In this document: piece by piece, positions 1 through 15,836 of the stretch
How the letters are laid out: every line of letters starts with the position of its first letter
Numbering within the stretch: position 1 is the first letter of the stretch
Source: Candidatus Nomurabacteria bacterium
GTDB taxonomy: Bacteria; Patescibacteriota; Minisyncoccia; Phycocordibacterales; UBA9973
DNA length: 63,252 nt
Direction: 5' to 3'
NCBI GenBank assembly: GCA_037139835.1
Contig: JBAXFQ010000003.1
Span: 1 to 63,252 of the forward strand
Program-made: the position numbers and the translations under genes
The notes under the pieces: generated by a model
What the model was told of the DNA's origin: nothing
Database searches by the model: none
What the model saw: the letters and a program-made list of their open reading frames with translations, nothing else

Positions 1-3000
1 TGTTGGTGTCGTCGTATCAACCTCAGGAGTAGTAGTTGCCGAAGACTGCGAAGTCGTAGTTGTCGTAGGCGATGCAGCCGGAGATACTGAGTCAGAAGAC
101 GAAGTGCTGATCGTAGTTCCAATTGAAGTTCCTCCTGTGAGAGAATTTATTATTGTATCAAGAATTCCCGAACCTGAACCCCCTGCACTTGCTGTCTGTG
201 TCGTAGGCGATGTAGCCGGAGACACTGAGTCAGTAGACGAAGTGTTGATAGTTGTTGCCGTAGTCTGAGAAGACGAAGGTACTGAACCAACAGGTGAAGT
301 ATTAGTTTGCTGTACTAGATTTGTCGGAGTAGAAGTAGGATCAATTACCAATCCTGTTATCACACTTTCAAATATTTTTGGATTCTTGACTGCAAGTGCA
401 ACCCATGAGAAGCGAACATCTTGAGGAGCAACTTTATTCAAAACTATAGTGAATCCTTTTTCATCTTTATCAGCAACTACAGACTTGATATCATTATCGA
501 AGAATGTCTTCGCATCAAATACAGCTGTCGTTCCATCTGCATTTTTTACTTTTTCGAATGATACTGTTGTATTCACTATCGGTGTAGCGATGTATGCATT
601 ATCGAAAGTCACATCAACTTTATTGGCACCTGCTTTCACTATTGCAAATCCAGCTGTATCACTATTGAACAGTGGAGGTACTGCAAACTCTGCTACATCT
701 TCAAACTTTACAGACTTAGCAAAGTCTACATTTGCATTGAAGAATGTGAGACCATTAAACGTCGACTCCCCTGCGAACTGGTGAGCGGATTCACTTTCAT
801 AATATCCTTGCTCTACGAATACCATCACCATATTCTGCCCTGAAGATGGAGTCCAATCTTCGAGGGCTTTACCTATTACAAATCCTGACCTTAGTGCTCT
901 TGTAGCCATACCTGGATCTATCTGTGAAGTTGTTAGATAATCCCCCGCTTTGATAGGAGAAGATGTTTGGGATATCTTTACAGGAACACGTCCGTTAAGA
1001 GCGACAGGCATAGGATTGTCAGTGTCTTTTATATTGTAACCAGTAGATGAGAAATCATTCTTGTTGTTTGATACGATACCTACGACATTTTGCTGATAAC
1101 CGTCTGTAGATTTTACCAATTTAGTTACATTTCCTTTTACTTTATTCCAATCTATATTGCCATCAGTACCTATATCATAAGTAGTTATTTTTTCTGTACC
1201 TGTAGCCACTATATCTCCGTATTCTAATCCACTTGTGACTGGGTACATTTCGGCATAGTCAGCAGCAGGTGCTCCACTACAATCACGAAGTTCATAAGCA
1301 GTTCCAGCTGTAGGTGCTGTACCGTTGGCTAGACTCGAACAGACAGCAGTAGTTGAAGCTGTTCCTGAAAGTCCTAGACTAGTGATTCCGGCATTGGTGA
1401 CCTTAAAGAGTGAGACATTGTTCTTCTGTAAGTCTATGAAGTTACCAGTGAAAGATCCAGATCCTGTGGCAAACTTCATGAGCAAACCTGTGCCTGTAAA
1501 TGTAGAAGTGCTATGGAAGAAGTTTGCGTAAGAAGTAGCAGAAGTTACAGATGTGGAATAAAGTCTCAATATATCTCCTTGTGTCGTTCCTGTACTTTCA
1601 CCATACAGAGCGGCAGGTACTGACACTCCTCCACCGAGACCTGAGATAACACCTTGAACTCCGAATGTTGCCCCAGAGGCACGGAGACCTGTATTTGTTC
1701 CTGCTGTATTACTTCCTCCATTTGCTGTGATATCAAGACCACGAACTGTGTTTGATAAAGATGTATTATCAACTACACGTACTAATTGTGCTACTGCAGT
1801 ATTGGCATTTGTCGTCGGACTATTTGTTACCACATAACGATCCCCCACTTGAGTACCACCGGCAGTTGGATTGAAAGTATATCCTCCGAGTATTCCAGCG
1901 ATAGCACTCGATGGTCCGTTCGCTGCAGTAGTACCTGTGACATAAAGTTTTGAAGAAGATGTTCCCTCTGAGGCTGCTCCGATATATACTCTATTATTTG
2001 TCGCATCTCCGACTATCAGATTTGTATCAACGGTTAACCCTGTTGACACATTGACTGAACCCGTAAAGTTCGCTGAACTTGAAATAGTTTGAGAATTAAT
2101 TAAACCTGAAGAAATAGTTCCTATATTTGTAAGATTTCCAGATGCATCAATTCTCACTGTTCCTGCTCCTGCACCTGTAGCTATACTTGTCACAGCATTA
2201 AGTGTTCCAGGTGCACGGAAGTCAGATGGTATAGAAAGTGTAACTGCTCCAGTAGAAGATGAAGCACTTATTTGATTTGCAGTTCCTGATATAGAAGAAA
2301 CTCCACTTGAAGATGTTAAGAATGTAGATGATAGAACCTTTTCAATTACACCAGTAGATGTATTTCTCGTCATGATGTCGTAACCACCAGCAGATGTTGT
2401 AGGTGCGGTAGTGAGGGTTAGAGTACTACCGATATTTGCTGTACCGTTTACGTCGAGTTTGTATGTCGGGTTGGTGGTGCCGATGCCGACGTTGCCATTA
2501 CTATCTATTTTTACTTTATCTACAGAACCTACTTGAAAGTTATAACCCGAACCAGAATTAAAATAATTTAAACCAGATTCTCTATTGTTGAAGTATGCAT
2601 TTCCACTAGTATCCATTGCTAAATCAAGACCATCGGTTCCTAATATTCCGACTGTGGAATTTGTAACCTTCAAATATGAAGTTGCAGCGGTTGCATTTAC
2701 TACTAAGTTTGCACTAGGATTCGTCGTCCCGATGCCGACGTTGCCGTTGCTTAATATTCTTATGCCCTCTTTTAAAATACCGTAATTACCCGCTGATGAT
2801 AATACTAAAGAAGCCTGTCCTGTAGAATTTTCAGTTATCGTAGATATTCTTCCAGTATTATAATATGGAGTCCCCGGTATTCCATTCCAGAAAGCAATAC
2901 CAGAACTATCGCCACTATTAACTCTGGTATTAAATATACTTAATAAATCTTCATTGGCTGAACCGGCTGCATTAGCCACCATCAGTTTCGCCCCCGGTGC

Positions 3001-6000
3001 CGTCGTCCCGATGCCGACGTTGCCGGTGTTGTCGATGCTTAATCGTTCAGTTGCACCGGTAAACACTCCTAATCTCGTTGCAGATGGTGCCTGTATATAA
3101 TAACCTGCGGGACCAAATTGGAACGAGTAACCCTGATTAAGCTTTATTTCTCCGCCGGTTGCAAGAATGTTGCCTGACACTTCAAGCTTTTGACTCGGAC
3201 TCGTCGTCCCGATGCCGACGTTGCCTGCATTTATATAACTGTTCCCAGTGTTTGCAAAAAGACGAACAGTTTTTACATTTGCTGAATTATAAAGGTTTAA
3301 CTCACCGTCCCAGTTATTTGATACTATTTCTCCCCTTGGATAAATACCGGCACCAGTATCAACCCAAAGACCAATGCCATCGGAACTACTATTACCTGCC
3401 GCCTGAACGACTAATTTTTTAGTTGGTCCCGTCGTCCCGATGCCGACGTTGCCGTTTGTTAATTGAACCATTTTTGCCGTAGTTCCACCGCCAGGCGTGA
3501 AATAAATAGGACCAGCAGAAGTATAAAAGTTCAAACCACCAGTACCACCAACACTTGTAAATACTGCTTGTCGTGCCAAAATATCTGTGCCACTTATTGC
3601 CCCAGTAGAACCTGTCATCAAAAACTGTCCCAAATCTCCAGTGTCGTTATTCCAAATAGCATTAGCATATCCACCAGCATTAGTGTTAGTAATTGACAGA
3701 CCCGAAACGCTAGAGTTTGCTTGAGTAGCGTTTGCCGACAATGTTAATTGACTTCCTGGTCCCGTCGTCCCGATGCCGACGTTGCCGTTTATTATTAAAC
3801 CATTTGCCGGAGCCGTTTGCCCTGATGCGTACCCAACACTGGCATTACCTACTACAGAAAGTTTTGTACCCGGCGAAGCATCACCGATGCCGACGTTGCC
3901 GGATGATTTTACAATTAACACTGGGTTCGTTTTATCATAAGCAGCGCTATTGCCTCGATACAAAGCCAATAAATTACCCGTGACAGAAGGACCATAGGTA
4001 AATCCTTGAATTACATCACCGGCGAAGGTGCCATCGTTAGGATAGAATCTACTCACATATCCAGTTCCAACCCCGGAATTAGTTTTAACATCTATTCCAG
4101 AACTTCCAGTTCCACTATTTGCATTATAAAAATAAGCTAATTTATCATTAATATCTCCGGTAACTTCAAGCTTCGCTCCCGGATTCGTCGTCCCGATGCC
4201 GACGTTGCCGTTTATTGCTAATTTCGCCGTCCCTGGGTCTGCATAACCAATTGCAACATTTCCACCTAATGGATTAATAGCAAGATTCCATCCAATTCCA
4301 GAGGTGCGGGATTGGATATAATTTGGATAAGGTGAAACTCCTGAACCACCCATCGAAATTTCCTGACCAGCATTATTAATTAATAGTCCAGAAGCAGCTC
4401 CAGTAACAAGAGATGGATTGTATGTATTACTATTATAAATTTCCAATTTACTTCCCGGTCCCGTCGTCCCGATGCCAATATTTCCATTATTCAATATTGT
4501 TAATCTTTCTGTATTAGAACTTGTTGTACGAAAATGTATAATGGCTGTTCCTTGAGCATCAAAATACATACCACTCTGTGGTGTTCTAAAAACCATATTC
4601 CCTGCATAATCGAGTTGGAACAATCCTGTTCCTCCAATTGTTTGAAATCCAATATTTGAACTTGTAGTCGCTCCTGTTCCAGTTACTTTTAAAATCCCAT
4701 TGTCACCATTAGAAGATGCAGTAGAAAGTTCCAGAGATGCACCCGGATTCGTCGTCCCGATGCCGACGTTGCCGTTTGGTAAAATTCTCATTGCTTCATT
4801 GTTTCCTGTTCCAAAAGCCAAAGGACCGGCGGAGTTTCCGCTGGAAGTTAGTGAGGATAATGTTGGCTCTGATGCTCCTGCCAAGTTAAATGCATTTTTT
4901 ATAAATAAACCTTGTGTAGTAGAACCTCTGAAAGCCGCAACTAATCCTGACGTATCTAACACATCTAATTTCACTGCTGGCGTCGTCGTGCCGATGCCGA
5001 CGTTGCCACCAACTAGAACATTAAATAATTTAGTACTTCCATTACTAACATCAAATATTCCTACTGGTGCAGCTGTTGCTGCTGCATTTGTAATATGAAG
5101 AGAACTAGTTATAAATGCCATTCTGTTTGCTGCCCCTCCAGCAGTTGCTGAGAATGCTACATTATCTGTTGTGGTATTACCAACTTGGAACCATTGAGTA
5201 TCTTGTGCATCTGACCAAGCAGTCGTCGATCTTACACCTCTGAAAACTCTATTTGTGGATTGATATAACATTATATCCCCTCCTGAGTTTCCAAGATTTC
5301 CAGATGAATTAATAAAAGCTTTTGCACTTCCATTCACTTGCCATTGTTGTAGGTCTGCAGTCTGGCCAGTGAATCCATTTGCTACTATAGGAGTTATGCC
5401 TATAGCAGAAGAATTTACTTGCAGTGGATATCCAGGAGTAGTAGTTCCAACACCAAGGTTACCATTTGTATCAATACGCATACGTTCTACAGGAGTAGAT
5501 CCATGAGCTGTTGCAAATCCTAAATATGAATATGTATCAGCTGAATCAATTCCAAAGCGAACTTGAGATCCGTTGTTTGTATTTCCTGAAGCATATTGAA
5601 CTCCGATTGGAACATAACTCCCCGGTACATTTTGTGCACTATAAATTCCTATTCCAGAACCACTTGTTCCGCTTACTGCCAATGTAAGTTTTTGAGTAAT
5701 ACTATTTAAATCTGAAGCAGTAGTATTTATTCCTACGCTTGTTCCATTATCAAATATCTGTGAATCACCAACGGTTGTCCCGGAGCCTGTAAATTTAGCT
5801 ACTTTATTTAGAGTCCCCGAAGGAGTAGCCATATAAGAAACATTCGAAGCAGCAGTAACCAAACCTTTTCCATTTACGGTGACATTATTAAATGTACCTA
5901 CATTCGAATTCACTGTTGCTAATGTTAATGCTCCACTTGCAACTATTCCTGCATCTCCGGTCATTGATACAAATGTAGGAACACCTGATCCATTTGCTAC

Positions 6001-9000
6001 TAGGAGTTGTCCTGTTGTTCCTGCTGCTGTAGCTAGTATAGAAGTAGTACTGTTACCATATAGAACTCCATTAGTTGTGAATGTTCCTACTCCTGTTCCT
6101 CCTCTTGATACAGCTGTGTACTGTTCTGATCCTAGAGTAGTAGCACTATTCCAATATGTATTGTATCCATTTGTTCCTGATAGTGCAGATGCAAATGAAG
6201 ATGATGAAACTTTTTCAATTACTCCTGTTCCTGTATTTCTTGTGACTATGTCGTAACCACCAGCAGAAGTTGTAGGTGCGGTGGTTAGGGTTAGGGTGCT
6301 ACCGATGTTTGCTGTACCGTTTACGTCGAGTTTGTATCCGGGTGAGGTGGTGCCGATGCCAACACTCCCTGTCGTTGTAAAAAAATTACTAGGCTTATTA
6401 TAAATAATACTACCATTATTTAAATTCCAATTATCACGGGCAGGAACTCCTCCTCCATAGACATAAACAGAACTAACTGTCATTGCTTCAAAACCCGGCA
6501 ACGCAGCTGCACCAGCGCTTATTCCAATAGCTTGCAAATAATATTGGTTGCCTTGAGATACTCGATGTTTCAAAGTGAAATACCATCGACTATTAGTTGA
6601 ATCCCAAAATGGACCAGTCATTTGTACTCTATCTGCAGTGTAGCCCTGATCAGCCTGAACTTCCCATTGGGAATCATATAAAGCACCAGCTGGATTCATA
6701 CCACCAGACCAACGAGGACTATATAAGCCAGTACCATTAATATAATTATATGTACCAGTAATATTAAATTGAATAGAACCCCAAAAATAAGTACCTGCGG
6801 GTAATATAATGTCAACTGCTTGTTGAGCTACACCATTCGGAAAATCAACGAATAATACTTTTTCAGAACGAATACTTCCGATACGTGTACCCTGAGTTCT
6901 AATATAACCAGAAGTATTAATATCCCCCGAAACATCCAACTTGTACACCGGAGCAGTCATACCAATTCCGACGTTGCCGTTTGGTAATATTCTCATTGCT
7001 TCTGATGTGTTAGGAGAGAAAATTAAACCTGTAGTTGAATACATATTTAATCCTGAACTTTCAACATTTAAAGCACCGGCTTGTGTTCCATTACCCATAG
7101 TAAGACCAGCTGAAGCTGTATAACCACTACTTCCTACAGAACCTATTTGTAACTTAGCATTAGGAATCGTCGTCCCGATTCCTACGTTTCCGTTTTGTAA
7201 GATTGTCATAGCTGTAGGGTAAGCACCTGCGTTATACATATCGAAATTGATACTGTGGCTGGTCGCCTGTCGCAAACCCCAATAGTTATTCGATCCCGTA
7301 AGCAGGTAGTGTGTTGCAACTGATGCGGACGACGTCAAATCTCCTACCGAGTCATTTTCAGAACCGCCCAATCTGACCGTACCTGCTACATCTAATTTGG
7401 TTCCAGGATTAGTTATACCTATCCCTAGATTGCCAGTAGCTTGCAATGTCATCAATTGATCATTTGAATAAAATCCCCAAGTTAAAGCATTACTTGTTGA
7501 ACCAGAACTTGCATATTTAAACCCCATATATCCAGATTGATTTGTTCCAGTACCTACTCCTAAGAAAGGAGAAATTAAAAGATGTCCCGTTGTTAGATTT
7601 GGGGCTTTAACAAAACTACCCCATACATAAGTACCATCATCTGTAGCAGTTACATCCAACACTGCTGGACCTCCACTTCCTGTACCCCCATTACCTGAAA
7701 TAGTTAAACGAGATCCAGGTGATGTAGCATTAATCCCCACATTACCATTCCCCAATATCGTCATCTTTTCTGTAGGAGTATTGTCAGCTACACCAGTCAC
7801 TCCTGCCGTCGAAGTAAAGAAATGCATTGCTGAAGTTCCTGTACCAGTACTGATTCCTGATTTAAAATTTAAATCCCCTCCTGCAAGATCAGCTGTTCCT
7901 GCTATTGATCCACCAGAAGAAAGTGTGAGACCTTGTCCGGCTGTAGCTGCAGTTGTGTTTCTTTCCATCCAGATAGTATGTGCAGTTGTGCCATCGAAAG
8001 ATAAAGCTTGAGTTGGTGATGATGTTCCGATACCAACTGCTCCACTGCCATTAATTGTCAAAACTCTACCACTTGTGCCGTTATTAAAATAAAATCCTCC
8101 ACCGCTAACATTATTCAACCACATTGGTCCATTTGAAGAATCTATACCTAGTCCCGCATCATTATTCGTTCCTCCATAATCTTGAATTTTTAATCTAAAA
8201 CCATTTTCTCCAGTTGGATCAGAATAAACAGATTTATTTGATAACATAGTTCCGTCAACTTGCAATGAATACCCAGGTACCGTCGTCCCTATTCCCACAT
8301 TCGTTCCATTATCAAAAATCTGAGAATCACCAATAGCTGAACCAGTAGATGTAAATTTCGCTATTTTATTTTGTGTACCTGTCCCTGTGACTGGATTTGT
8401 AAGAGCTGTTTGATATGTAGTTGTATCTACACTCAATGTTCCATCAGCGGAATTTGTTTTCAAGAATCCATTTGTTGTAAATTTTGAAAGCTTGATAGTA
8501 TCTAGTGCCGAGCCAATAAGTATCGTATCTGCAGTTGTATTATTCGTTCCGATATTTATCGTCTTGCCTCCTGTTCCTGTTCCGATATTTATTATACCTG
8601 TCGTTCCAGAGTCGAGAGTGAGAGCTCCTGTTGTGCCTGTTGTAATATTGAGTGCGGAAGCTGCATTTGAATTTATATTTACTACTGCTCCGTTGATAGT
8701 AGTGTTGGCTCCAACTCTACCGAGTGTCAAAGCATTTTGATTAACTGCTCCTATATTTAATGCGACAGCTGAAGGTGCATCAACATTTGGAGTATAGACA
8801 TATCCAGAAATAGTAAGTGCTCCTGTTGAAGGGATAAATGAAAGTTGAGCTGAAGAAGTTTTGATAGCCATTCCTCCAGAGTTAGTCGTAACCCAAGTCG
8901 GATATACAGATGTCGCAGTCGCCGCATCATTCGTAATATTTGAGGTTATAGAAGTTTGAGCAGTTTCAGAAATGACAGCTGCAGGTACTGTTCCCAACTT

Positions 9001-9384
9001 TTTTCTTGGAGTCATTTCTCCATCCCATCCTGGTGTTCCCGTCCCCCCGATATTTACACCCAAGTAAAGTGTCTGGTTGAAGTCTACTCCAGTCAGAGCA
9101 TTTATTTCTCCGAGCATAGCAGAGAAGAGTCCATTTGTGACTTGAACTTTATTTGTTGTTGTTCTCGTCTCTGTCCAAAGAGTAGTTCCTGCTGTTGGTG
9201 CATCGTAAAGTTTGAATTCCATATTGTAAGTTCCGTTCGCTACTGCTACCCCTGCTGAAGTCGTAAGCTTACCTTGATAGTTTATCTGCTTGTTGAAAAG
9301 AGCTTCTGCTTTTCCTACAAGTGGAGAGAAAGGAGCAAGAATCAAAGATAAGAAAATAAATGAAGAAGCCAAGATGTTCGCCAT
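1..9384 (-). CDS. giant secreted repeat surface protein, tail-fibre-like (at least 3,128 aa; C-terminal part continues beyond the left window edge)
   Basis: Not in the ORF track because no stop lies inside the window. ATG = complement of cat 9382-9384. I read plus-strand triplets in register 1 mod 3 over 1-960, 5041-5100 and the start region and found no TTA/CTA/TCA. The only other minus ORF listed here (1566-1772) is in a different frame. The N-terminus MANILASSFIFLSLILAPFSPLVGKAEA looks like a signal peptide. The body carries about 20 copies (by eye) of G-N-[VIL]-G-I-G-T-T-x-P. The visible C-terminal end (1-400) is Thr/Ser-rich. Confidence 0.85.
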   Translation of the reverse strand, partial: MANILASSFIFLSLILAPFSPLVGKAEALFNKQINYQGKLTTSAGVAVANGTYNMEFKLYDAPTAGTTLWTETRTTTNKVQVTNGLFSAMLGEINALTGVDFNQTLYLGVNIGGTGTPGWDGEMTPRKKLGTVPAAVISETAQTSITSNITNDAATATSVYPTWVTTNSGGMAIKTSSAQLSFIPSTGALTISGYVYTPNVDAPSAVALNIGAVNQNALTLGRVGANTTINGAVVNINSNAASALNITTGTTGALTLDSGTTGIINIGTGTGGKTINIGTNNTTADTILIGSALDTIKLSKFTTNGFLKTNSADGTLSVDTTTYQTALTNPVTGTGTQNKIAKFTSTGSAIGDSQIFDNGTNVGIGTTVPGYSLQVDGTMLSNKSVYSDPTGENGFRLKIQDYGGTNNDAGLGIDSSNGPMWLNNVSGGGFYFNNGTSGRVLTINGSGAVGIGTSSPTQALSFDGTTAHTIWMERNTTAATAGQGLTLSSGGSIAGTADLAGGDLNFKSGISTGTGTSAMHFFTSTAGVTGVADNTPTEKMTILGNGNVGINATSPGSRLTISGNGGTGSGGPAVLDVTATDDGTYVWGSFVKAPNLTTGHLLISPFLGVGTGTNQSGYMGFKYASSGSTSNALTWGFYSNDQLMTLQATGNLGIGITNPGTKLDVAGTVRLGGSENDSVGDLTSSASVATHYLLTGSNNYWGLRQATSHSINFDMYNAGAYPTAMTILQNGNVGIGTTIPNAKLQIGSVGSSGYTASAGLTMGNGTQAGALNVESSGLNMYSTTGLIFSPNTSEAMRILPNGNVGIGMTAPVYKLDVSGDINTSGYIRTQGTRIGSIRSEKVLFVDFPNGVAQQAVDIILPAGTYFWGSIQFNITGTYNYINGTGLYSPRWSGGMNPAGALYDSQWEVQADQGYTADRVQMTGPFWDSTNSRWYFTLKHRVSQGNQYYLQAIGISAGAAALPGFEAMTVSSVYVYGGGVPARDNWNLNNGSIIYNKPSNFFTTTGSVGIGTTSPGYKLDVNGTANIGSTLTLTTAPTTSAGGYDIVTRNTGTGVIEKVSSSSFASALSGTNGYNTYWNSATTLGSEQYTAVSRGGTGVGTFTTNGVLYGNSTTSILATAAGTTGQLLVANGSGVPTFVSMTGDAGIVASGALTLATVNSNVGTFNNVTVNGKGLVTAASNVSYMATPSGTLNKVAKFTGSGTTVGDSQIFDNGTSVGINTTASDLNSITQKLTLAVSGTSGSGIGIYSAQNVPGSYVPIGVQYASGNTNNGSQVRFGIDSADTYSYLGFATAHGSTPVERMRIDTNGNLGVGTTTPGYPLQVNSSAIGITPIVANGFTGQTADLQQWQVNGSAKAFINSSGNLGNSGGDIMLYQSTNRVFRGVRSTTAWSDAQDTQWFQVGNTTTDNVAFSATAGGAANRMAFITSSLHITNAAATAAPVGIFDVSNGSTKLFNVLVGGNVGIGTTTPAVKLDVLDTSGLVAAFRGSTTQGLFIKNAFNLAGASEPTLSSLTSSGNSAGPLAFGTGNNEAMRILPNGNVGIGTTNPGASLELSTASSNGDNGILKVTGTGATTSSNIGFQTIGGTGLFQLDYAGNMVFRTPQSGMYFDAQGTAIIHFRTTSSNTERLTILNNGNIGIGTTGPGSKLEIYNSNTYNPSLVTGAASGLLINNAGQEISMGGSGVSPYPNYIQSRTSGIGWNLAINPLGGNVAIGYADPGTAKLAINGNVGIGTTNPGAKLEVTGDINDKLAYFYNANSGTGSSGIDVKTNSGVGTGYVSRFYPNDGTFAGDVIQGFTYGPSVTGNLLALYRGNSAAYDKTNPVLIVKSSGNVGIGDASPGTKLSVVGNASVGYASGQTAPANGLIINGNVGIGTTGPGSQLTLSANATQANSSVSGLSITNTNAGGYANAIWNNDTGDLGQFLMTGSTGAISGTDILARQAVFTSVGGTGGLNFYTSAGPIYFTPGGGTTAKMVQLTNGNVGIGTTGPTKKLVVQAAGNSSSDGIGLWVDTGAGIYPRGEIVSNNWDGELNLYNSANVKTVRLFANTGNSYINAGNVGIGTTSPSQKLEVSGNILATGGEIKLNQGYSFQFGPAGYYIQAPSATRLGVFTGATERLSIDNTGNVGIGTTAPGAKLMVANAAGSANEDLLSIFNTRVNSGDSSGIAFWNGIPGTPYYNTGRISTITENSTGQASLVLSSAGNYGILKEGIRILSNGNVGIGTTNPSANLVVNATAATSYLKVTNSTVGILGTDGLDLAMDTSGNAYFNNRESGLNYFNSGSGYNFQVGSVDKVKIDSNGNVGIGTTNPTYKLDVNGTANIGSTLTLTTAPTTSAGGYDIMTRNTSTGVIEKVLSSTFLTSSSGVSSISGTANQISASSSTGAVTLSIPSDFRAPGTLNAVTSIATGAGAGTVRIDASGNLTNIGTISSGLINSQTISSSANFTGSVNVSTGLTVDTNLIVGDATNNRVYIGAASEGTSSSKLYVTGTTAANGPSSAIAGILGGYTFNPTAGGTQVGDRYVVTNSPTTNANTAVAQLVRVVDNTSLSNTVRGLDITANGGSNTAGTNTGLRASGATFGVQGVISGLGGGVSVPAALYGESTGTTQGDILRLYSTSVTSATSYANFFHSTSTFTGTGLLMKFATGSGSFTGNFIDLQKNNVSLFKVTNAGITSLGLSGTASTTAVCSSLANGTAPTAGTAYELRDCSGAPAADYAEMYPVTSGLEYGDIVATGTEKITTYDIGTDGNIDWNKVKGNVTKLVKSTDGYQQNVVGIVSNNKNDFSSTGYNIKDTDNPMPVALNGRVPVKISQTSSPIKAGDYLTTSQIDPGMATRALRSGFVIGKALEDWTPSSGQNMVMVFVEQGYYESESAHQFAGESTFNGLTFFNANVDFAKSVKFEDVAEFAVPPLFNSDTAGFAIVKAGANKVDVTFDNAYIATPIVNTTVSFEKVKNADGTTAVFDAKTFFDNDIKSVVADKDEKGFTIVLNKVAPQDVRFSWVALAVKNPKIFESVITGLVIDPTSTPTNLVQQTNTSPVGSVPSSSQTTATTINTSSTDSVSPATSPTTQTASAGGSGSGILDTIINSLTGGTSIGTTISTSSSDSVSPAASPTTTTTSQSSATTTPEVDTTTPT
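2341..2490 (-). repeat. internal duplication inside the giant gene, copy 1 (module junction ...KLDVNGTANIGSTLTLTTAPTTSAGGYDI.TRNT.TGVIEK)
   Basis: Aligns with 6214-6363 at an in-frame offset of 3,873 nt. Over the central ~110 nt roughly nine in ten positions are identical by eye. Confidence 0.8.
2482..5007 (-). repeat. array of 10 perfect copies of the GC-rich 15-mer GATGCCGACGTTGCC (plus strand), encoding G-N-V-G-I on the minus strand; 7 copies extend to the 24-mer CGTCGTCCCGATGCCGACGTTGCC
   Basis: Copies start at 2482, 2731, 3010, 3211, 3439, 3772, 3886, 4195, 4759 and 4993. All spacings are multiples of 3 (249, 279, 201, 228, 333, 114, 309, 564, 234). Degenerate copies occur near 4466, 5450, 6355, 6965, 7175, 7420, 7730, 8030 and 8290. 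Confidence 0.9.
6214..6363 (-). repeat. internal duplication inside the giant gene, copy 2
   Basis: See copy 1 (2341-2490). The shared string is atgtcgtaaccaccagcaga...gctgtaccgtttacgtcgagtttgtat. Confidence 0.8.
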
Positions 9385-9475
9385 CTCTTTGGTCTTTCTA
9401 TTTATTTTTATAAATTTTATTTTCATTTTTTCTTTCTTCTTTCTTCTTTCTTACCTAATCACTAACTACTATTCA

Positions 9476-9841
9476 CTAATCACTAATCCTTATACTTCCC
9501 CCATCCGACTTCACAGCGGACTGTGTTTCAACAGTAGGGGTCGGCTTACTTTTGGTAAATGATGACAACAGCAAAAATCCACCAATAAAAATAATAATGG
9601 TGGCTATGATTATGTTCTTTGTACGAGTAGGCGAAAAGAAATCTTTTATTGCGAATTCTTGGTGACGGACCTTCTTCTTGAAAATATAGTTATTGACCTC
9701 TTCTTCAGTAGTGAACCAAGCTCTTCCTTTCTTCATTCCTTTTATCTCTCCCTTACGTACCAAAAATCCAAGGTAGTCTTGTGAGTACCCTGATAGCTGT
9801 GCCGCTTGGTTTAAAGAAATGACTTTTTTAAATGATTCCAT
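9476..9841 (-). CDS. HTH (excisionase/MerR-like HTH_17-type) DNA-binding protein with a C-terminal TM helix
   Basis: LNQAAQLSGYSQDYLGFLVRKGEIKGMKKGRAWFTTEEEVNNYI resembles the HTH_17 pattern. A hydrophobic stretch IIIATIIIFIGGFLLLSSF follows. The gene lies immediately upstream of the giant gene on the same strand. Confidence 0.7.
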   Translation of the reverse strand: MESFKKVISLNQAAQLSGYSQDYLGFLVRKGEIKGMKKGRAWFTTEEEVNNYIFKKKVRHQEFAIKDFFSPTRTKNIIIATIIIFIGGFLLLSSFTKSKPTPTVETQSAVKSDGGSIRISD

Positions 9842-10116
9842 CCCGTTAGAGATAGGAAGCGCCTAATCTATTTTTTAGATAACGCTTACCCATCCCTGTT
9901 TTTAAATATAACTCTCTCGACATTGCTTTCTCTTTTAACAAACACGCCTCGTAATAAATAACAAAGAACGGTCCTCTACCTTTAGTATAAATAGACTTAC
10001 CACTATTATGTTCAGAAAGGCGCTTCCGTAGATCATTTGTAAATCCGGTGTATAGCTTGCCATCTTTCTTACTTTTTAATACGTAAGTGTAGTAATACAT
10101 AACTATCTCTAACGGG
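9842..10116 (-). mobile_element. candidate compact selfish element: GIY-YIG ORF bracketed exactly by perfect 14-nt terminal inverted repeats CCCGTTAGAGATAG / CTATCTCTAACGGG
   Basis: The left arm 9842-9855 overlaps the ORF stop. The right arm 10103-10116 ends 2 nt before the ATG at 10100. Related termini (CCCGTTAGA / TCTAACGGG) occur at 32517-32634 and 21530-21567. Confidence 0.45.
9846..10100 (-). CDS. small GIY-YIG nuclease superfamily protein (about 84 aa)
   Basis: MYYYTYVLKSKKDGKLYTGFTNDLRKRLSEHNSG matches the GIY-x-YIG ... R ... H-N core pattern. The ORF-track start at 10121 is a GTG, so I prefer the ATG at 10100. Confidence 0.8.
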   Translation of the reverse strand: MYYYTYVLKSKKDGKLYTGFTNDLRKRLSEHNSGKSIYTKGRGPFFVIYYEACLLKEKAMSRELYLKTGMGKRYLKNRLGASYL

Positions 10117-10154
10117 ACCACTCAATTTCTATTTAGCCTTAATTTATAATGTTA

Positions 10155-10264: not shown

Positions 10265-10654
10265 TATGAAAGGAACTCATTTATTATAACAAATGTGAAA
10301 AGTTATTCAATAATAATACACATAGTTATGCACAGTTTTCAAATCAACCCAAAAAATCAACTCTGTAAAGCATTTTTGCAAATATTTATATCCTCTATGA
10401 ATTAATAAATAAGATACATCTATTAGATCAAAATACAGACCCTAAGCTTTGCTTTGGGGCTGTGTTTATTAATACTCGTGATCCCTTTATAAACCTATGT
10501 ACATGAATAATAAGAATAGATACCAGCCTTCTCCTACCTGCAAATAGATATATATTACTCTATATCAATCAATGCCCTTCTTATCATCTTAAGCCTATAA
10601 TTAATAGCTATAAGTAAGGCATAATTTGCCATTCATCAAACCTTACAATAAATT

Positions 10655-10686
10655 AAAAACGCCCATACTAAAGTATGGGCGTTTTT
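10655..10686. terminator. bidirectional intrinsic terminator hairpin
   Basis: AAAAACGCCCATAC-taaa-GTATGGGCGTTTTT, immediately downstream of the 10699-11349 gene. Confidence 0.8.
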
Positions 10687-10698
10687 AACTATTTTATT

Positions 10699-11349
10699 TT
10701 AGACAGCAGTTGCAGTAGCGGTGATCGTAGCAGTATAAGTACCAGCTGCGGCAAAGATACCATTCTGTCCAGCAGCAAAACAAACATTGGTTGCTTGACC
10801 AGCAAGAGGTGTTGGTGTAGCAAAAGTAGCTATATTTATAGGTGTTACTCCATTAAATCCACTATATTTTAGAGTTGCATTTGGAGTACCAGCAGTACCA
10901 CAATCAGCACCTGTTCCCCATGTAGTGGTATTAACCCATCCTGTTGATGCTTGTCTAACAGAAAAACCAAATTGAGTTGATGAAGCAGGTACACTCCAAA
11001 GTGCAGTAGTTAAAGGAGCATCGGTAAACTGATTTGCTCCACTCTTAAGTGCAGCAGTAGTAGAAGCTTGAACTGTAAGACCATACCCTGTTGCTGAGTT
11101 TGTTACTACTGTCCAAGTTGCACCAGTTGCAGAGATAGATGAGTTTGATCCAGTACCTATGTTTGGGGCCATGGTTATATCAGCAGGAGCAGTGATGGTT
11201 ACACCTGAAGTAACGTTTAGGGTAACAACTACAGCATCAGTTACTGCTGTTGCATTTGCAATCAGAGGTTCAAACGCTAAATAAAACATAGGCATTAACA
11301 GTAATGAAATTACTGAACTTGCTATAACTTTCTTAATATTATTTTTCAT
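10699..11349 (-). CDS. secreted beta-rich surface/fibre subunit candidate (WxL-like or SCPU-like by composition), paralogue B
   Basis: Signal peptide ending ...LIANA/TAV. Ser/Thr/Gly-rich body with ATWTVVTNSATGYGLTVQAS and LWSVPASS motifs. C-terminal strand GTYTATITATATAV. Near-identical to 14599-15252. Confidence 0.6.
   Translation of the reverse strand: MKNNIKKVIASSVISLLLMPMFYLAFEPLIANATAVTDAVVVTLNVTSGVTITAPADITMAPNIGTGSNSSISATGATWTVVTNSATGYGLTVQASTTAALKSGANQFTDAPLTTALWSVPASSTQFGFSVRQASTGWVNTTTWGTGADCGTAGTPNATLKYSGFNGVTPINIATFATPTPLAGQATNVCFAAGQNGIFAAAGTYTATITATATAV
10743..11330 (-). repeat. long direct repeat, copy B (pairs with 14643-15230; offset exactly 3,900 nt)
   Basis: Line-by-line comparison shows 10769-11208 is 100% identical to 14669-15108 (440 nt). 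Differences cluster at both gene ends. Confidence 0.95.
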
Positions 11350-11446
11350 ATAATATGAATATAGAGAATTATATATTATATTATATCATAATAATTTAAA
11401 TTAAAGAAATAATTTATTGAAATTATAATTCATCTAGGGATAATCA

Positions 11447-12787
11447 TTATTTGTTATTTTTAGATAAATTAAACCTTCTTGAAAAGAAGAAAATCAGAAA
11501 CAACAATAGAAGAATTAAAAACACTATTATTAGTATCCACCAAAATATATACCAATAATTATTATTACTATCTATCAAAACTTTTGATATTTTGAATGCC
11601 CCCTGATTTACTACCTGAGTCACTCCATTACTATATCTATATATTGAAATCTTGTAATATCCTCCCTCACTAAAGGTTGGTATCGTGACTGACGTAAAAC
11701 CATCCTTGTCTTTATTTCTAAAGAAAAAATACTGACCAATTATCGACATATTTTTATCTCTTATCTCTACCCACATATCATCATTTTTTGTCTTTGGTGA
11801 ATAGTTTGTCTTAACATCAATGGGAACATCTCCAGAAAGAGATATCACACTACCTATTGTAAAATCATAAATAAATGAATCTTGTAATACTTTATAAATA
11901 TTTTCGAGTGGAGGTATTTCTTTTGGTACTACATTTATATTCGTTTCAAAAAAACCAGATGAATTATATATTGCACTTATAAGTGCCCCACTCGAGTAGT
12001 TGCCTGCCCTATCACGACTAAAAAGCGAGTAATAATATATATTATCTTTTAAAACATTATTATCTGTAAAATACATTCCCTTACCTTCATAAACAAGATG
12101 ACCAATATTTGGACTACCGTAGAATCTATCAGTACTTCTCATCACACGGATATAATCAAAATCTAAATCTGTGGGATTAAGCCATGATACAGTAATACCA
12201 GATGCTGCAGATTTAGCTTTTATATTTGTAGGGTTTCCTGGTGGGGTTGTATCAGGAAGTGAAAGAGTTCTGAAAACTTGATTCTCAAGAGTATTTGTCT
12301 TACCCAAGAGGTTCCCAGCCTGTATACTAAAATAATAAACTGTGCCATCATGGAGATTTACTATATCAACTTTGTGATTTATTAAAAAATTAATATTACT
12401 TATAATTCCATCTTTATAATCAGGGCTTGTCCCCCATTTCAAATTTGACATAGTAGGTATGACACTCTGCCATTTGATAGTGGCAGTATTATAACTAACT
12501 TCTACTGTTAGATTCTTAAAAACATTATTTATATCCATTGGTAAAGTACTCCCTCCACTATTACTTCCTCCTGTTCTTGGGGGCTCTGGTGGTATTATGA
12601 TAGGTGTACAATCAGCAGGACATACGTACATATCCTCACTACCCACATCACAGACACCATCATTATTACAACTACCGACATGCAAATTTATATCTATGCC
12701 GTCAGTCGAAGCAAAAGCAAAATGCAAACCTGTATTGATAATAAAAATAAAAGTGAATATAAATAATATTAAAATAATTTTCTTCAT
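11447..12787 (-). CDS. secreted protein with a Cys-rich N-terminal motif, two fibronectin-III-like segments and a C-terminal TM anchor
   Basis: Signal peptide ...HFAFA/STDG. Cys motif CNNDGVCDVGSEDMYVCPADC. FN3-like strings (ATIKWQSV...YYFSIQA; ITVSWLNP...YYYSLFSRDRAGN). C-terminal WYIFWWILIIVFLILLLLFLIFFF followed by basic residues. Confidence 0.65.
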   Translation of the reverse strand: MKKIILILFIFTFIFIINTGLHFAFASTDGIDINLHVGSCNNDGVCDVGSEDMYVCPADCTPIIIPPEPPRTGGSNSGGSTLPMDINNVFKNLTVEVSYNTATIKWQSVIPTMSNLKWGTSPDYKDGIISNINFLINHKVDIVNLHDGTVYYFSIQAGNLLGKTNTLENQVFRTLSLPDTTPPGNPTNIKAKSAASGITVSWLNPTDLDFDYIRVMRSTDRFYGSPNIGHLVYEGKGMYFTDNNVLKDNIYYYSLFSRDRAGNYSSGALISAIYNSSGFFETNINVVPKEIPPLENIYKVLQDSFIYDFTIGSVISLSGDVPIDVKTNYSPKTKNDDMWVEIRDKNMSIIGQYFFFRNKDKDGFTSVTIPTFSEGGYYKISIYRYSNGVTQVVNQGAFKISKVLIDSNNNYWYIFWWILIIVFLILLLLFLIFFFSRRFNLSKNNK

Positions 12788-12788
12788 A

Positions 12789-13562
12789 TTATAAAGCAGT
12801 AGCAGTAGCTATTAAAGTTATATTGTATACTCCTGAAGTTTGAACATGATTTGCTCCAGATTCAGCTCGAAGTCGAGCCGTAACAACTGAACCAGATGGA
12901 TGATTTGATACACTAGAGACTGCTATTATCTTTGGAGTAGTAGAAAGACCATCCCAACATTTAGCAGATGTTTCCGATGTCCCTGTATTACATATAGATC
13001 CATTGTCTTTAAAGCGAGTAGCTACGTCTGTACCTTCAGGAGAAAATCCAAAAGAAGAATTTGCAGGTAGATTTGTAAAATTATAGTCTGGATCAGACCC
13101 TGCAGGTACATAATCAGAAAGAGAGTCTACCGCAGACTTAAGAGCAGGTGTTGTAGTCGATGCTATAGACATAGAATATCCTGCGGGATTATCTGTCACA
13201 ACTGTCCAAGACATCGTACCTTCACTTGAAGCACCAGAAAGTCCTGACATAGATGCCATCACTAGATCAGATGGCGCTGATATGGAGATAGAACTCTCTT
13301 GCATCTGCCAATATCCAGCATGCATATAATAGTTTGTACTATTAGAATCTCCCGTGCCTAATTCTCCAAGTGAATCTCCAACCTTATAGGAAGTACTACC
13401 AGAATCTGCACCACCAAAATTCAAACTATCAGTTTGGATACGGTAAGTAGAACTCTGCATAGCAGCAGAAAAAACACTGGAAGGTATTATAAACGATACC
13501 ACAATAAGTAACGCTAAATAAAAAGTATGATTACTTTTCGTAAAAAAGTATAAAAATTTCAT
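12789..13562 (-). CDS. secreted beta-rich surface/fibre subunit candidate, larger relative of the flanking paralogues
   Basis: Signal peptide ...SVFSA/A. MSWTVVTDNPAGYSMSIAS parallels ATWTVVTNSATGYGLTVQAS. C-terminal GVYNITLIATATAL parallels GTYTATITATATAV. There is a 1-nt gap to the next gene. Confidence 0.6.
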   Translation of the reverse strand: MKFLYFFTKSNHTFYLALLIVVSFIIPSSVFSAAMQSSTYRIQTDSLNFGGADSGSTSYKVGDSLGELGTGDSNSTNYYMHAGYWQMQESSISISAPSDLVMASMSGLSGASSEGTMSWTVVTDNPAGYSMSIASTTTPALKSAVDSLSDYVPAGSDPDYNFTNLPANSSFGFSPEGTDVATRFKDNGSICNTGTSETSAKCWDGLSTTPKIIAVSSVSNHPSGSVVTARLRAESGANHVQTSGVYNITLIATATAL

Positions 13563-13574
13563 ACTAAGTAAATA

Positions 13575-14552
13575 TTATTTTTTCTTCTTAAGTTCAAATC
13601 GCGTGAGTATGTAATAGATGAATGATATAAATATAACAAGACCAGCAAATATAGCTAGAAGTATCTTCCAAGGTATTATCCAAAATACAATTGATGCAGT
13701 TGCATTATCATTCTCACTTCCATACCCTTTATATAGAGAAAGATTAGCTGTATAACGCCCTAATCCAGAACCTTCACTCCAAAGTACTTCACGATAACGA
13801 GTAGAATCAGGTAAGGCAAAATAAGCATCTACTGGTATTTCTCCAACACTTCCACCTAAAATATTTTTAATTATTACCTTACCATGAGGAACAAGATGAA
13901 CATTACCATCGTTTTTAAATGCTATTTCAAAACCCTTTGGTCGATTTTCATAAAAAACTTTCTTTGGTCCTATTATTTTAAAATCTGTGAGAGATCCGGA
14001 TTCTTTTCCTTCGCCATTTATACGTAAAAGGAAAAGTGCCCCTATTCGTGATACAAGACGAGCTTTACCTTCGGCTTCTTGAGCCTTTCCATCTTCCAAA
14101 ACTGTTGGTTCATTTGATACGATAAGTGCCCCATAGAAACCTCTTGGCTCTGAATCAATAGGAATAGAAACTGTAACAGGTATAGTGATTTTCTCTCCTG
14201 GTTCAAGTGAAAACTCACTTATTTCTGGGATTATAAAATTCTTTAGTGAATATGGGCTTTTTTCATCACCCATCAATTTAACGGTGGTTGTCGGATCACT
14301 AGTTCCAACCATATCTTCAGTTGTTAATTTAAACTTTGTAGTTTTGTCTATTCTATTTGTTATAGAAATAGCCTTTATGCTTGTCTCTCCTGGGTTAACA
14401 TATATTTCTGTTTTACCTGGTTCTACTACAAAATCCCCTACTAAATCTTTAGTTACAATAGACTTTTCAAAAGCAAGAACATTTTTTGATACTAATAAAG
14501 ATAGAACAATAAATGTTCCAATGGCAATTTTTTTGTAAGATTCTGATTTCAT
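13575..14552 (-). CDS. secreted Ig-fold-like protein with a C-terminal TM anchor and a KKKK tail (DUF916/DUF3324-like architecture; possible assembly or anchor component)
   Basis: Signal peptide ...KNVLA/FEK. FVVEPGKTEIYVNPGETSIKAISITN and FEIAFKNDGNVHLVPHGKVIIKN beta-sandwich-like strings. C-terminal WKILLAIFAGLVIFISFIYYIL + RFELKKKK. The length and topology resemble the TM protein of Firmicute WxL (csc) loci. Confidence 0.5.
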   Translation of the reverse strand: MKSESYKKIAIGTFIVLSLLVSKNVLAFEKSIVTKDLVGDFVVEPGKTEIYVNPGETSIKAISITNRIDKTTKFKLTTEDMVGTSDPTTTVKLMGDEKSPYSLKNFIIPEISEFSLEPGEKITIPVTVSIPIDSEPRGFYGALIVSNEPTVLEDGKAQEAEGKARLVSRIGALFLLRINGEGKESGSLTDFKIIGPKKVFYENRPKGFEIAFKNDGNVHLVPHGKVIIKNILGGSVGEIPVDAYFALPDSTRYREVLWSEGSGLGRYTANLSLYKGYGSENDNATASIVFWIIPWKILLAIFAGLVIFISFIYYILTRFELKKKK

Positions 14553-14598
14553 GAATTTTATATCTTGTTGCTATATAAAATAATACAGCAAGAAAATT

Positions 14599-15252
14599 TT
14601 AAGCAGCTGTTGCTGTTGCTGTTATTGTAGCGGTATAAACTCCAGCTGCGGCAAAGATACCATTCTGCCCAGCAGCAAAACAAACATTGGTTGCTTGACC
14701 AGCAAGAGGTGTTGGTGTAGCAAAAGTAGCTATATTTATAGGTGTTACTCCATTAAATCCACTATATTTTAGAGTTGCATTTGGAGTACCAGCAGTACCA
14801 CAATCAGCACCTGTTCCCCATGTAGTGGTATTAACCCATCCTGTTGATGCTTGTCTAACAGAAAAACCAAATTGAGTTGATGAAGCAGGTACACTCCAAA
14901 GTGCAGTAGTTAAAGGAGCATCGGTAAACTGATTTGCTCCACTCTTAAGTGCAGCAGTAGTAGAAGCTTGAACTGTAAGACCATACCCTGTTGCTGAGTT
15001 TGTTACTACTGTCCAAGTTGCACCAGTTGCAGAGATAGATGAGTTTGATCCAGTACCTATGTTTGGGGCCATGGTTATATCAGCAGGAGCAGTGATGGTT
15101 ACACCTGAGTCGACATTGAGTGTCACGATCATAGTATCAGTTACTGCTGTTGCGTTTGCAATCAGAGGTTCAAACGCTAGATAAAACATAGGCATTAACA
15201 GTAACGAAATTACTGAGCTTGCTATAACTTTTTTTATAGAGATTTTTTTCAT
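14599..15252 (-). CDS. secreted beta-rich surface/fibre subunit candidate, paralogue A
   Basis: 217 aa. Differs from the 10699-11349 product only near the start of the signal peptide, just after the predicted cleavage site (TDTMIVTLNVDSG versus TDAVVVTLNVTSG) and at the C-terminal strand. Confidence 0.6.
   Translation of the reverse strand: MKKISIKKVIASSVISLLLMPMFYLAFEPLIANATAVTDTMIVTLNVDSGVTITAPADITMAPNIGTGSNSSISATGATWTVVTNSATGYGLTVQASTTAALKSGANQFTDAPLTTALWSVPASSTQFGFSVRQASTGWVNTTTWGTGADCGTAGTPNATLKYSGFNGVTPINIATFATPTPLAGQATNVCFAAGQNGIFAAAGVYTATITATATAA
14643..15230 (-). repeat. long direct repeat, copy A (pairs with 10743-11330)
   Basis: See copy B. Confidence 0.95.
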
Positions 15253-15303: not shown

Positions 15304-15332
15304 ATTCTAATATACAACATGTTTTATTGCAA
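15304..15332 (-). promoter_or_regulatory. candidate sigma-70-type promoter for the surface cluster (-35 TTGCAA, 17-nt spacer, -10 TAGAAT)
   Basis: Minus strand reads TTGCAA-taaaacatgttgtatat-TAGAAT, about 50 nt upstream of the ATG at 15252. Confidence 0.4.
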
Positions 15333-15373
15333 ATGATGAGGGGTATAAATATGTGTATAAGTTGTGAATAAAA

Positions 15374-15410
15374 AAAGGAGAATTTTGTTACGAAAACAAA
15401 ATTCTCCTTT
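15374..15410. terminator. intrinsic terminator hairpin downstream of the sigma-region-4 gene
   Basis: AAAGGAGAATTTTGTT-acgaa-AACAAAATTCTCCTTT. Confidence 0.75.
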
Positions 15411-15419
15411 TAAAATTAG

Positions 15420-15836
15420 TTAACACAGATGTGCTCTCAGAATATTTAAAGCAACAGAATCACTTTTAATTTTATCAATTGCTTTTTGTTTAATTAAAAG
15501 AACTTTGTCTTTCGTTCTACCAATAGCATTAGCAATCTGCTGTTCTGTTTTTCTCTCGCAATGATCAATACCAAATAGGTGCACCAATACATAGCGTTGT
15601 TTGCTTTTTAATTTATCAAGGATTAGTTCCAGATCTACTTCCAGAGACTCTTCTTTGATTAAATAATCATCTGCACAATCTTTGCATGCAATGTTATTAC
15701 ACGCACACCTCCCCTCTTTCTCATCAAGGGAAATAATTTTATCAGAGCTTAATAATAAGACTTCTTCTTCTCTGATTTCTGAAAAGACCATGGGATTGTA
15801 CATTGTACTTCCCGACAAAAAATTTTGTTTTTCCAT
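15420..15836 (-). CDS. standalone sigma-70 region-4-like HTH protein with an N-terminal four-Cys cluster
   Basis: LKSKQRYVLVHLFGIDHCERKTEQQIANAIGRTKDKVLLIKQKAIDKIKS fits the region 4.2 pattern (L..R..V....FG.D.....T...IA...G.S...V..I...A..K). Cys cluster CACNNIACKDC. No region 2 is recognisable. The gene is flanked by terminators on both sides. Confidence 0.65.
   Translation of the reverse strand: MEKQNFLSGSTMYNPMVFSEIREEEVLLLSSDKIISLDEKEGRCACNNIACKDCADDYLIKEESLEVDLELILDKLKSKQRYVLVHLFGIDHCERKTEQQIANAIGRTKDKVLLIKQKAIDKIKSDSVALNILRAHLC

Follow-up and report, generated by a model that had tools for sequence, protein, structure and literature searches.

Does a tightly packed run of secreted proteins in a patescibacterial genome encode a cell-surface fibre and, if so, of what kind? 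Patescibacteria, to which much of bacterial diversity may belong, live in attachment to other cells, by means that are, to our knowledge, poorly understood. The locus considered here lies on the minus strand of a 63,252-nucleotide (nt) stretch of DNA from a Candidatus (Ca.) Nomurabacteria bacterium (assembly GCA_037139835.1, contig JBAXFQ010000003.1, positions 1 to 63,252; hereafter the window). An earlier note, made from the letters alone, had singled out five of its genes as the best candidate there for an undescribed surface-assembly system, possibly of the WxL/DUF916 type known from Firmicutes. We refer to these genes, in the order in which they are read, as S1, C, T, R and S2, to the family of S1 and S2 as S, and to a neighbouring gene as H (Table 1). 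The cluster probably directs the assembly of a thin surface fibre on an ultra-small monoderm cell of the class Paceibacteria (Nomurabacteria-like). Such a fibre would form by donor-strand exchange with the help of a chaperone and no usher, and would be a compact relative of the recently described Pam pilus.

Gene content, order and predicted folds of the cluster

All five proteins carry a hydrophobic, signal-peptide-like segment at their N-terminal end, and C and R also have a hydrophobic helix near the C-terminal end, with basic residues behind it. The genes are separated by 46 nt (S1-C), 12 nt (C-T, with the stop of C and the start of T in frame), 1 nt (T-R) and 97 nt (R-S2). The five minus-strand open reading frames, their spacing, their signal peptides and their C-terminal anchors are thus as the earlier note had listed them. 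None of the five reached a curated Pfam or NCBIfam threshold in profile searches, but the signals below threshold are consistent with one another.

The neighbourhood scan was run on one genome per GTDB species, with gene families called using hidden Markov models (HMMs) built for this work. It returned 47 loci, all of the Paceibacteria type and mostly titled Paceibacteria, Nomurabacteria, Lloydbacteria or Minisyncoccia. Wherever enough flanking sequence was available, the genes appeared on one strand in the order S(1-3)-C-T-R (47 species genomes). Chance does not account for the arrangement, since the four families recur in this order in 47 further species-level genomes. The earlier note was right in seeing here a conserved patescibacterial cluster for secreted and anchored surface assembly. 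The members of the three families searched are unnamed hypothetical proteins, those with a named source coming from Ca. Nomurabacteria, Paceibacterota or the Patescibacteria group. Measured against the window proteins, the median identity is 62 % for C, 60 % for T, 46 % for S and 37 % for R; at the sequence level the presumed chaperone and tip are conserved, and the presumed shaft pilin and stalk vary more.

The two S proteins are 96 % identical to each other and 31 % identical to T. Profile alignment with hhalign (99.7 %, E 6e-27) places S residues 49-217 on T residues 90-257, so that a single pilin domain is common to both proteins, in line with the relatedness of the small proteins that had been noticed earlier. 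Both of the motifs from which it had been read, W-T-V-V-T-[ND]-x3-G-Y-x-[LM]-x-[IV] and a terminal Y-x-x-T-[IL]-x-A-T-A-T-A, are present in S and T, with the reservation that the final two positions of the first, originally extended to 'A-S', are off by one in the 257-residue protein, T. The S family comprises 171 homologues, all of them unnamed and none with a Pfam domain; one of 55 S-family members matched the NCBIfam model NF058581 (CPR_Pam_pilin_C, Pam pilus system pilin subunit; CPR, candidate phyla radiation) with E 3e-6. An AlphaFold2 model of S1 (predicted local distance difference test score, pLDDT, 90.7) was compared with the PDB, and the top fold matches, weak in score, were nearly all chaperone-usher pilins, namely CfaE, the pilin domain of FimH, CsuA/B, FimA, PapE and the pilin domain of PapG. 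TasA ranked only 25th (E 0.24), and no WxL chain was found among the top 50 matches.

Residues 27-50 of the S1 model have no regular secondary structure. Within them lies the presumed donor strand, which follows the family-wide motif xTDxVxVTLxV[DT]SG and in which D39, V43, L45, V47 and G50 are invariant or nearly so among 55 homologues. At the other end of the protein, conservation among S paralogues is highest in the C-terminal strand GxYTATITATAT, the presumed edge strand with which a donor strand would pair. At the DNA level, a core of 439 nt is 100 % identical between S1 (15107..14669) and S2 (10769-11207), and the differences, many of them synonymous, are confined to both gene ends. Because the core is fully identical and synonymous changes cluster at the ends, the pattern points to gene conversion of the core and not to a recent duplication. 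A general specificity code in these terminal differences was considered but is not supported, as 13 pairs of paralogues from other genomes differ at sites scattered over the whole protein. In other genomes, one to three tandem S copies lie upstream of C, unlike the downstream S2 of the window. Metagenome contigs of the same organism (L005-L007) break within the S copies.

T is the subunit that ties the cluster to a named family. It matches the NCBIfam model NF058579 (CPR_pilus_PamT) with E 7.6e-12 and 45 bits over residues 13-149 (model positions 5-141 of 241), a model also matched by 119 of 134 diverse T relatives (best E 1e-14) and spanned in two long relatives from position 7 to 235 and from 26 to 238. 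By these profile matches T is homologous to PamT, though far under the naming threshold. The protein consists of a conserved 55-residue N-terminal module with three S-x-x-Y hairpin-like repeats, which is the part that matches PamT best, and of the pilin domain; the amphipathic N-terminal strand of the S type was not found in it. With the T profile, 1470 clusters at 50 % identity were recovered from 1.84 billion representatives searched. The model of the haloarchaeal tip subunit TafC was matched by 8 of the 134 T-like relatives.

Natural fusions of C and T make up 15 separate clusters among the best 150 T-like representatives (P0369, P0377 and P0477 included). In these proteins a full C profile with its transmembrane (TM) helix is followed by a short basic loop, a signal-peptide-like segment, an AxA site and mature T, an order consistent with a topology in which C would lie outside, the first span would lead to a loop inside, and a second span would return T to the outside. 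That they are artefacts of the genetic code or of gene calling was judged unlikely, as the junctions are clean and free of read-through residues. The fusions argue for a direct partnership of C with T. They also present an unusual arrangement, a protein joined to its own chaperone and presumably freed by signal peptidase. A further 31 long T-like representatives have additional sequence on the N-terminal side of the T module; nine of these were scanned against Pfam, and four of the nine matched Laminin_G_3 (LamG), DUF2341, FN3 or MG2 domains. Such N-terminal domains joined to a C-terminal T module give the two-domain architecture of tip adhesins.

The C protein has a signal peptide, two immunoglobulin (Ig)-like domains and a C-terminal TM helix (about residues 295-319) followed by a KKKK tail, and its AlphaFold2 model (pLDDT 80.4) shows two beta domains and a helix at 295-324. 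Foldseek returned the WxL-interacting protein WxLIP of Enterococcus faecium as the best PDB match of this model (9i25_C and 9i1y, E 6e-12 to 3e-11), and next Vibrio cholerae RbmA and a series of pilus chaperones, with E 1e-8 to 1e-5 for the chaperones CfaA, CsuC, Caf1M, CupB2, EcpB and PapD. Pfam matches in the C family are weak: WxLIP_PGBD (PF06030) in 10 of 40 relatives (best E 1.3e-3), with C itself scoring 15.5 bits against a gathering threshold (GA) of 27.3, and Motile_Sperm (MSP domain) in 9 of 40. No DUF3324 (PF11797, WxLIP_HBD) match was found in C, and no NCBIfam Pam match in C-family members. The family numbers 361 homologues at 59-88 % identity.

R consists, from its N- to its C-terminal end, of a signal peptide, a strand, a four-cysteine knot, a proline-rich linker, two FN3 domains, a third beta domain, a TM helix (about residues 411-435, in a hydrophobic segment covering residues 409-442) and a basic tail. 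The cysteine motif and FN3-like segments reported for this 446-residue protein are real: C40, C46, C56 and C60 are invariant, and fn3 is matched by R itself (Pfam, E 1.7e-4) and by 18 of 21 family members (best 1.3e-8), while the family profile finds the FN3 domains of titin and neogenin in the PDB (E 5e-10). After the cleavage site, R orthologues carry the motif [ST]xDGIx[VIL]NLxVGxC, with L35 invariant and I31 and V37 nearly so among 21 orthologues. The N-terminal strands of S1, TDTMIVTLNVDS, and of R, TDGIDINLHVGS, fall into a common register, TDxhxhxLxVxS (S1 residues 38-49). The donor-strand idea, which had been raised loosely, fits the evidence.

A probable Pam-like fibre and the readings that compete with it

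Pam pili were first described in a 2026 bioRxiv preprint, for Ca. [quoted passage not shown] Their filaments, seen by cryo-electron microscopy, consist of the two-domain pilins PamA and PamB (39-55 kDa; a nine-stranded N-terminal domain, a donated inter-domain linker strand and a truncated Ig C-terminal domain) joined by donor-strand exchange, the donated strand and its binding site being the best-conserved parts of the pilins. PamC and PamD are PapD/FimC-like chaperones that keep a C-terminal TM helix, PamT is a single-domain tip subunit, and PamR, an RbmA-like FN3 protein that has an additional strand at its N-terminal end and a TM helix at the other, is proposed to terminate and anchor the fibre (10.64898/2026.03.03.709456). 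The text of the preprint names Saccharimonadia and Microgenomatia only and makes no mention of Paceibacteria, WxL or DUF916 (10.64898/2026.03.03.709456). NCBIfam holds models for PamT (NF058579) and for the C-terminal domain of the Pam pilins (NF058581).

The cluster resembles the Pam system in being confined to CPR bacteria, presumably exported by Sec, free of usher and sortase, and built around a pilin domain whose fold resembles, if weakly, the chaperone-usher type. T has a significant HMM match to PamT, a subunit of ~25 kDa, though one far under the cut-off. C, a presumed two-domain PapD-like chaperone with a C-terminal TM helix, is like PamC and PamD as these are described; R, a C-terminally anchored FN3 protein with an extra N-terminal strand, is like PamR in architecture, again as PamR is described. 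The differences are equally plain. The two-domain major pilin of the PamA/PamB type, a defining feature of Pam, was not found in S1 and S2 (216-217 residues), which are single-domain proteins of ~180 mature residues with a presumed N-terminal donor strand, as in classical chaperone-usher pilins, whereas PamA and PamB donate a linker. There is one chaperone gene here and two in Pam; R, at 446 residues, adds a four-cysteine knot and a third beta domain, whereas PamR measures 32.8 kDa; the module occurs in Paceibacteria (Nomurabacteria, Lloydbacteria); the HMM scores here all lie far under the Pam family cut-offs; and the conserved neighbour is an HTH_17 membrane protein, whereas the Pam preprint gives genes for ATP synthase, CorB and a major facilitator superfamily protein. 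The cluster is most likely a simpler, single-domain-pilin variant of the Pam kind described in 2026 and not categorically new. As a kind it can no longer be called undescribed, since the preprint sets out the same logic and T matches the PamT model.

In the assembly route that we infer, together with its strand exchange, its order of subunits, the length of its polymer, its adhesive function and a regulatory role for H, all subunits would be exported by Sec. C, held in the membrane by its C-terminal helix, would use its two Ig-like domains to fill the groove in the incomplete Ig-like pilin domain of newly exported S and T. T would start the fibre and end up at its tip; this placement is proposed because T, with a presumed acceptor groove, lacks the S-type donor strand. 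S subunits would then be added singly, each inserting its N-terminal VTDxVxVTLxVDSG beside the C-terminal GxYTATITATAT of the previous subunit. Growth would stop when R inserted its look-alike strand, TDGIxVNLxVGS, into the last S, and the FN3 stalk and C-terminal TM helix of R would hold the fibre at the membrane. The adjacent H would probably regulate the operon.

Several observations weigh against this model. No filament has been observed in any organism that carries the module, and the strand insertion is proposed from sequences and monomer models. The fold matches of S1 are weak (E 0.04-0.1, template modelling score 0.3-0.57, probability up to 0.97), and neither S1 nor S2 matches the Pam pilin model NF058581 at E <= 1. 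The PamT match of T scores far under the 240-bit equivalog cut-off and is limited to the N-terminal half of that model. Neither C nor R is tied by sequence to any named family, the profile of C reaching the PDB WxLIP at E 0.58, which is at noise level. Lastly, a Lloydbacteria-like clade (L041-L053) has C, T and an R of ~1000 residues, rich in FN3 or Ig repeats, but lacks an S gene within 8 kb, so that the core may be a non-polymeric complex. In this clade the strand of R is replaced, at the same place, by NQFT[IV]G[VL]xV, which also alternates; the variant, whose R strand reads NQFTIGVTV, may be a non-polymeric stalk-plus-tip adhesin.

This clade is the natural starting point for an alternative in which the whole cluster would encode a short anchored adhesin, the strand of R capturing T with a few S spacers between them at most, C acting as a loading chaperone and S being an optional accessory. 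C-T-R is indeed the invariant core, C-T fusions exist without S, and T is often fused to lectin-like domains. Yet S lies immediately upstream of C in 30 of the 40 window-clade loci with enough upstream sequence, often in two or three copies, and it has what a polymerising subunit needs, a donor strand and a T-like C-terminal acceptor strand. The position of S first in the operon and ahead of a stem-loop, as is often the case for genes of major pilins, argues weakly in the same direction. We regard the short-adhesin arrangement as unlikely for the cluster as a whole. That the genes encode unrelated secreted beta-sandwich proteins (cell-wall or S-layer-associated proteins, or enzymes) that merely lie side by side would agree with the failure of all five to reach a curated family threshold, but it is hard to reconcile with the strict order and strand of four families in 47 species genomes, the homology of S with T, the C-T fusions, and folds that point consistently to pilins and pilus chaperones; it appears highly improbable.

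The comparison with WxL/csc loci made in the earlier note is best judged protein by protein. WxLIP is composed of DUF916, DUF3324 and a TM helix; in the predicted complex with its WxL partner, one strand of a WxLIP beta-hairpin enters the WxL protein, a chaperone-like strand complementation (PMC10599100; PDB 9i25, 9i1y). If C were a WxLIP-like protein that displays S and T one to one, in the manner proposed for WxLIP and WxL proteins of enterococci and lactobacilli, the result would be a non-filamentous complex with no polymer. The top structural match of C is indeed a WxLIP solved in complex with a WxL protein (9i25_C), the weak WxLIP_PGBD matches of the C family agree with it, C shares with WxLIP the succession of signal peptide, two Ig domains and TM helix (PMC10599100), and the make-up of the cluster, a single anchored protein with several small secreted partners, is csc-like. 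For C, then, the comparison stands in structure. It does not extend to the cluster: the WxL domain (PF13731) was matched by none of the five proteins at E <= 1, an LPXTG motif, the mark of a small sortase-anchored partner such as CscD, was absent from all five sequences (the nearest being LPDTT in R), and no DUF3324/WxLIP_HBD match was found, so that membership in the WxL/csc type was rejected. The partners here are, unlike those of WxL/csc loci, pilin-like, with donor-type strands in S and R that a plain display complex would have no need of; T is a relative of PamT; and in sequence the resemblance of C to WxLIP is noise. We consider a display complex of this type improbable, and retain the donor-strand fibre as the likely reading.

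Neighbouring genes and flanking signals

Table 1 Features of the cluster and its surroundings in the window. Roles are those presumed from the analysis.
Feature	Position	Strand	Description
S1	15252..14599	-	217 aa (amino acids), secreted single-domain pilin, presumed shaft subunit
S1 residues 37-50, VTDTMIVTLNVDSG	15103..15144	-	N-terminal extension, presumed donor strand directly after predicted AxA cleavage site
S1-C intergenic stem-loop	14553..14598	-	weak; RNA fold -16.4 kcal/mol, z -2.07
C	14552..13575	-	325 aa, presumed membrane-anchored assembly chaperone
T	13562..12789	-	257 aa, PamT-like subunit, presumed fibre tip
R	12787..11447	-	446 aa, presumed terminator and membrane anchor
R residues 27-39, STDGIDINLHVGS	12671..12709	-	amphipathic strand at mature N-terminus, presumed donor capping the last pilin
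S2	11349..10699	-	216 aa, second pilin copy
Terminator-like hairpin	10653..10688		G+C-rich palindrome, 16-bp stem, A/T runs on both sides, directly 3' of S2 stop
GIY-YIG gene	9846..10121	-	stand-alone nuclease, PF01541, E 2e-16, between S2 and H
H	9476..9841	-	121-aa membrane-anchored HTH_17 protein, presumed regulator
Promoter-like TTGCAA-17-TAGAAT	15304..15332	-	weak candidate, upstream of S1
Terminator-like hairpin	15411..15373		strong; upstream of cluster, ends sigma-like gene
Sigma-region-4 gene	15420-15836	-	138 aa, Cys-rich N-terminus (CxCx5CxxC) and sigma-70 region 4 only; own terminator

The cluster as first delimited ended at S2 and missed a conserved gene, H. The H protein matches the excisionase-type Pfam family HTH_17 (E 2.3e-5; 25 bits against a GA of 27) and has one hydrophobic or TM helix at about residues 76-96, followed by a short tail. 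Of 46 non-redundant loci, 26 have an H orthologue on the strand of R, 64-310 nt downstream of it, and at nine more an HTH_17 domain heads a protein of 520-640 residues just upstream of C, giving 35 of 46; eight of the remaining 11 loci have no flanking sequence. By this recurrence H belongs to the module as its fifth family, and it is probably a membrane-tethered regulator of it. In the window, S2, a terminator and the GIY-YIG gene separate R from H. Since S2 and the GIY-YIG gene break an R-H adjacency that is otherwise kept, they may mark a mobile insertion.

The earlier note had also drawn attention to the neighbouring sigma-region-4 gene and to a candidate promoter and terminator belonging to the cluster. 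The sigma-like protein has NCBIfam matches to the C-terminal parts of RpoS and RpoD (E 2e-9), and it was rejected as a part of the system: its gene lies beside the module only in the window and in a contig of the same organism (L004), and beyond these at just one other locus (L008), weakly. Of the two signals, the hairpin terminators are strong, terminator-like sites in the region numbering 10 where 2.5 are expected. Promoter-like matches number 22 against 27 expected from shuffled sequence, which is no better than chance, so that the one upstream of S1 is no more than a candidate. The stem-loop between S1 and C is possibly an attenuator that would favour the pilin over the downstream genes.

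Next to H, an open reading frame cut by the start of the window (positions 1-9426, minus strand) encodes more than 3142 residues of a secreted protein rich in glycine, threonine, serine and asparagine, with no Pfam match. Its G+C content is 0.40-0.43, compared with about 0.30-0.35 in the rest of the window. Giant proteins are found near the module in relatives as well (1422 residues at L003; more than 1026 residues, with a beta-helix, at L001). A tail-fibre-like protein co-localises with pam operons (10.64898/2026.03.03.709456). Some module loci are filed under unexpected names, namely Saccharofermentanales, Burkholderiales, 'uncultured archaeon' and 'uncultured Candidatus Saccharibacteria' (L013, L029, L052, L014, L016 and others); these are probably mis-binned or generically labelled contigs of metagenome-assembled genomes.

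Known donor-strand systems and meaning for Patescibacteria

Beyond Pam and WxL/csc loci, close parallels are the chaperone-usher pili of Gram-negative bacteria (Fim, Pap, Csu, CFA/I, Caf1). The model of S matches their pilins, weakly, and that of C their chaperones; as in these pilins, hydrophobic residues alternate in the N-terminal extension of S, and its C-terminal strand is conserved and contains a G-x-Y motif; and the presumed logic is one of tip, shaft and terminator. Unlike them, the module has no outer membrane or usher to work with (Pfam found no usher domain in the cluster proteins, and none is present in the conserved S-C-T-R-H module), its chaperone is membrane-anchored, its terminator would be a TM-anchored FN3 protein, and similarity at the sequence level is undetectable. 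Sequence searches of solved structures with S1 and T, and with the family profiles of S, T and C, gave only noise, and no Pam structures were detectable in the PDB copy used.

The tafi (Tat-fimbriae) of haloarchaea are assembled from a TafC tip with LamG, a TafE adapter, a TafA shaft and a TafF membrane terminator (PMC11821415). The fibre proposed here would share with them a linear donor-strand build in cells without an outer membrane, a terminator anchored in the membrane, and a tip to which a LamG lectin domain can be joined. Tafi differ in using twin-arginine (Tat) export and a dedicated signal peptidase, TafD, and in having no PapD-like chaperone. No gene for a TafD/SipW-type peptidase was found in the module, which has a chaperone-like gene instead, and the window's own proteins gave no match to the Taf models.

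It is tempting to go further and to see in C, PamC/PamD and WxLIP the mark of a single pathway, ancient and without an usher, by which bacteria with one membrane assemble subunits through donor strands. In such a scheme S-C-T-R of Paceibacteria would be the simplest form, with single-domain pilins that bear classical N-terminal donor strands, WxL/csc complexes would likewise be put together by strand complementation, C-T-R and C-T fusions would reflect an ancestral state in which a chaperone loads a tip subunit onto an anchored stalk, and the shaft pilins would have arisen later from a duplication of T. We offer this scheme tentatively and hold it to be doubtful as it stands.

Whatever its origin, the module bears on how Patescibacteria may interact with other cells. 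The Pam pilus was recognised only in 2026, in Saccharimonadia; a related and simpler module of four genes, with a linked regulator-like gene, is widespread in another and very large class, the Paceibacteria. Its parts, which comprise a small single-domain pilin, a lone chaperone, a tip and an anchor, lend themselves to experiments. It also ties the chaperones of CPR bacteria, in structure, to the enigmatic WxL-interacting proteins of Firmicutes. Finally, it helps to annotate hundreds of surface proteins of CPR bacteria now listed as 'hypothetical', among them tip adhesins with lectin domains that may set host range.

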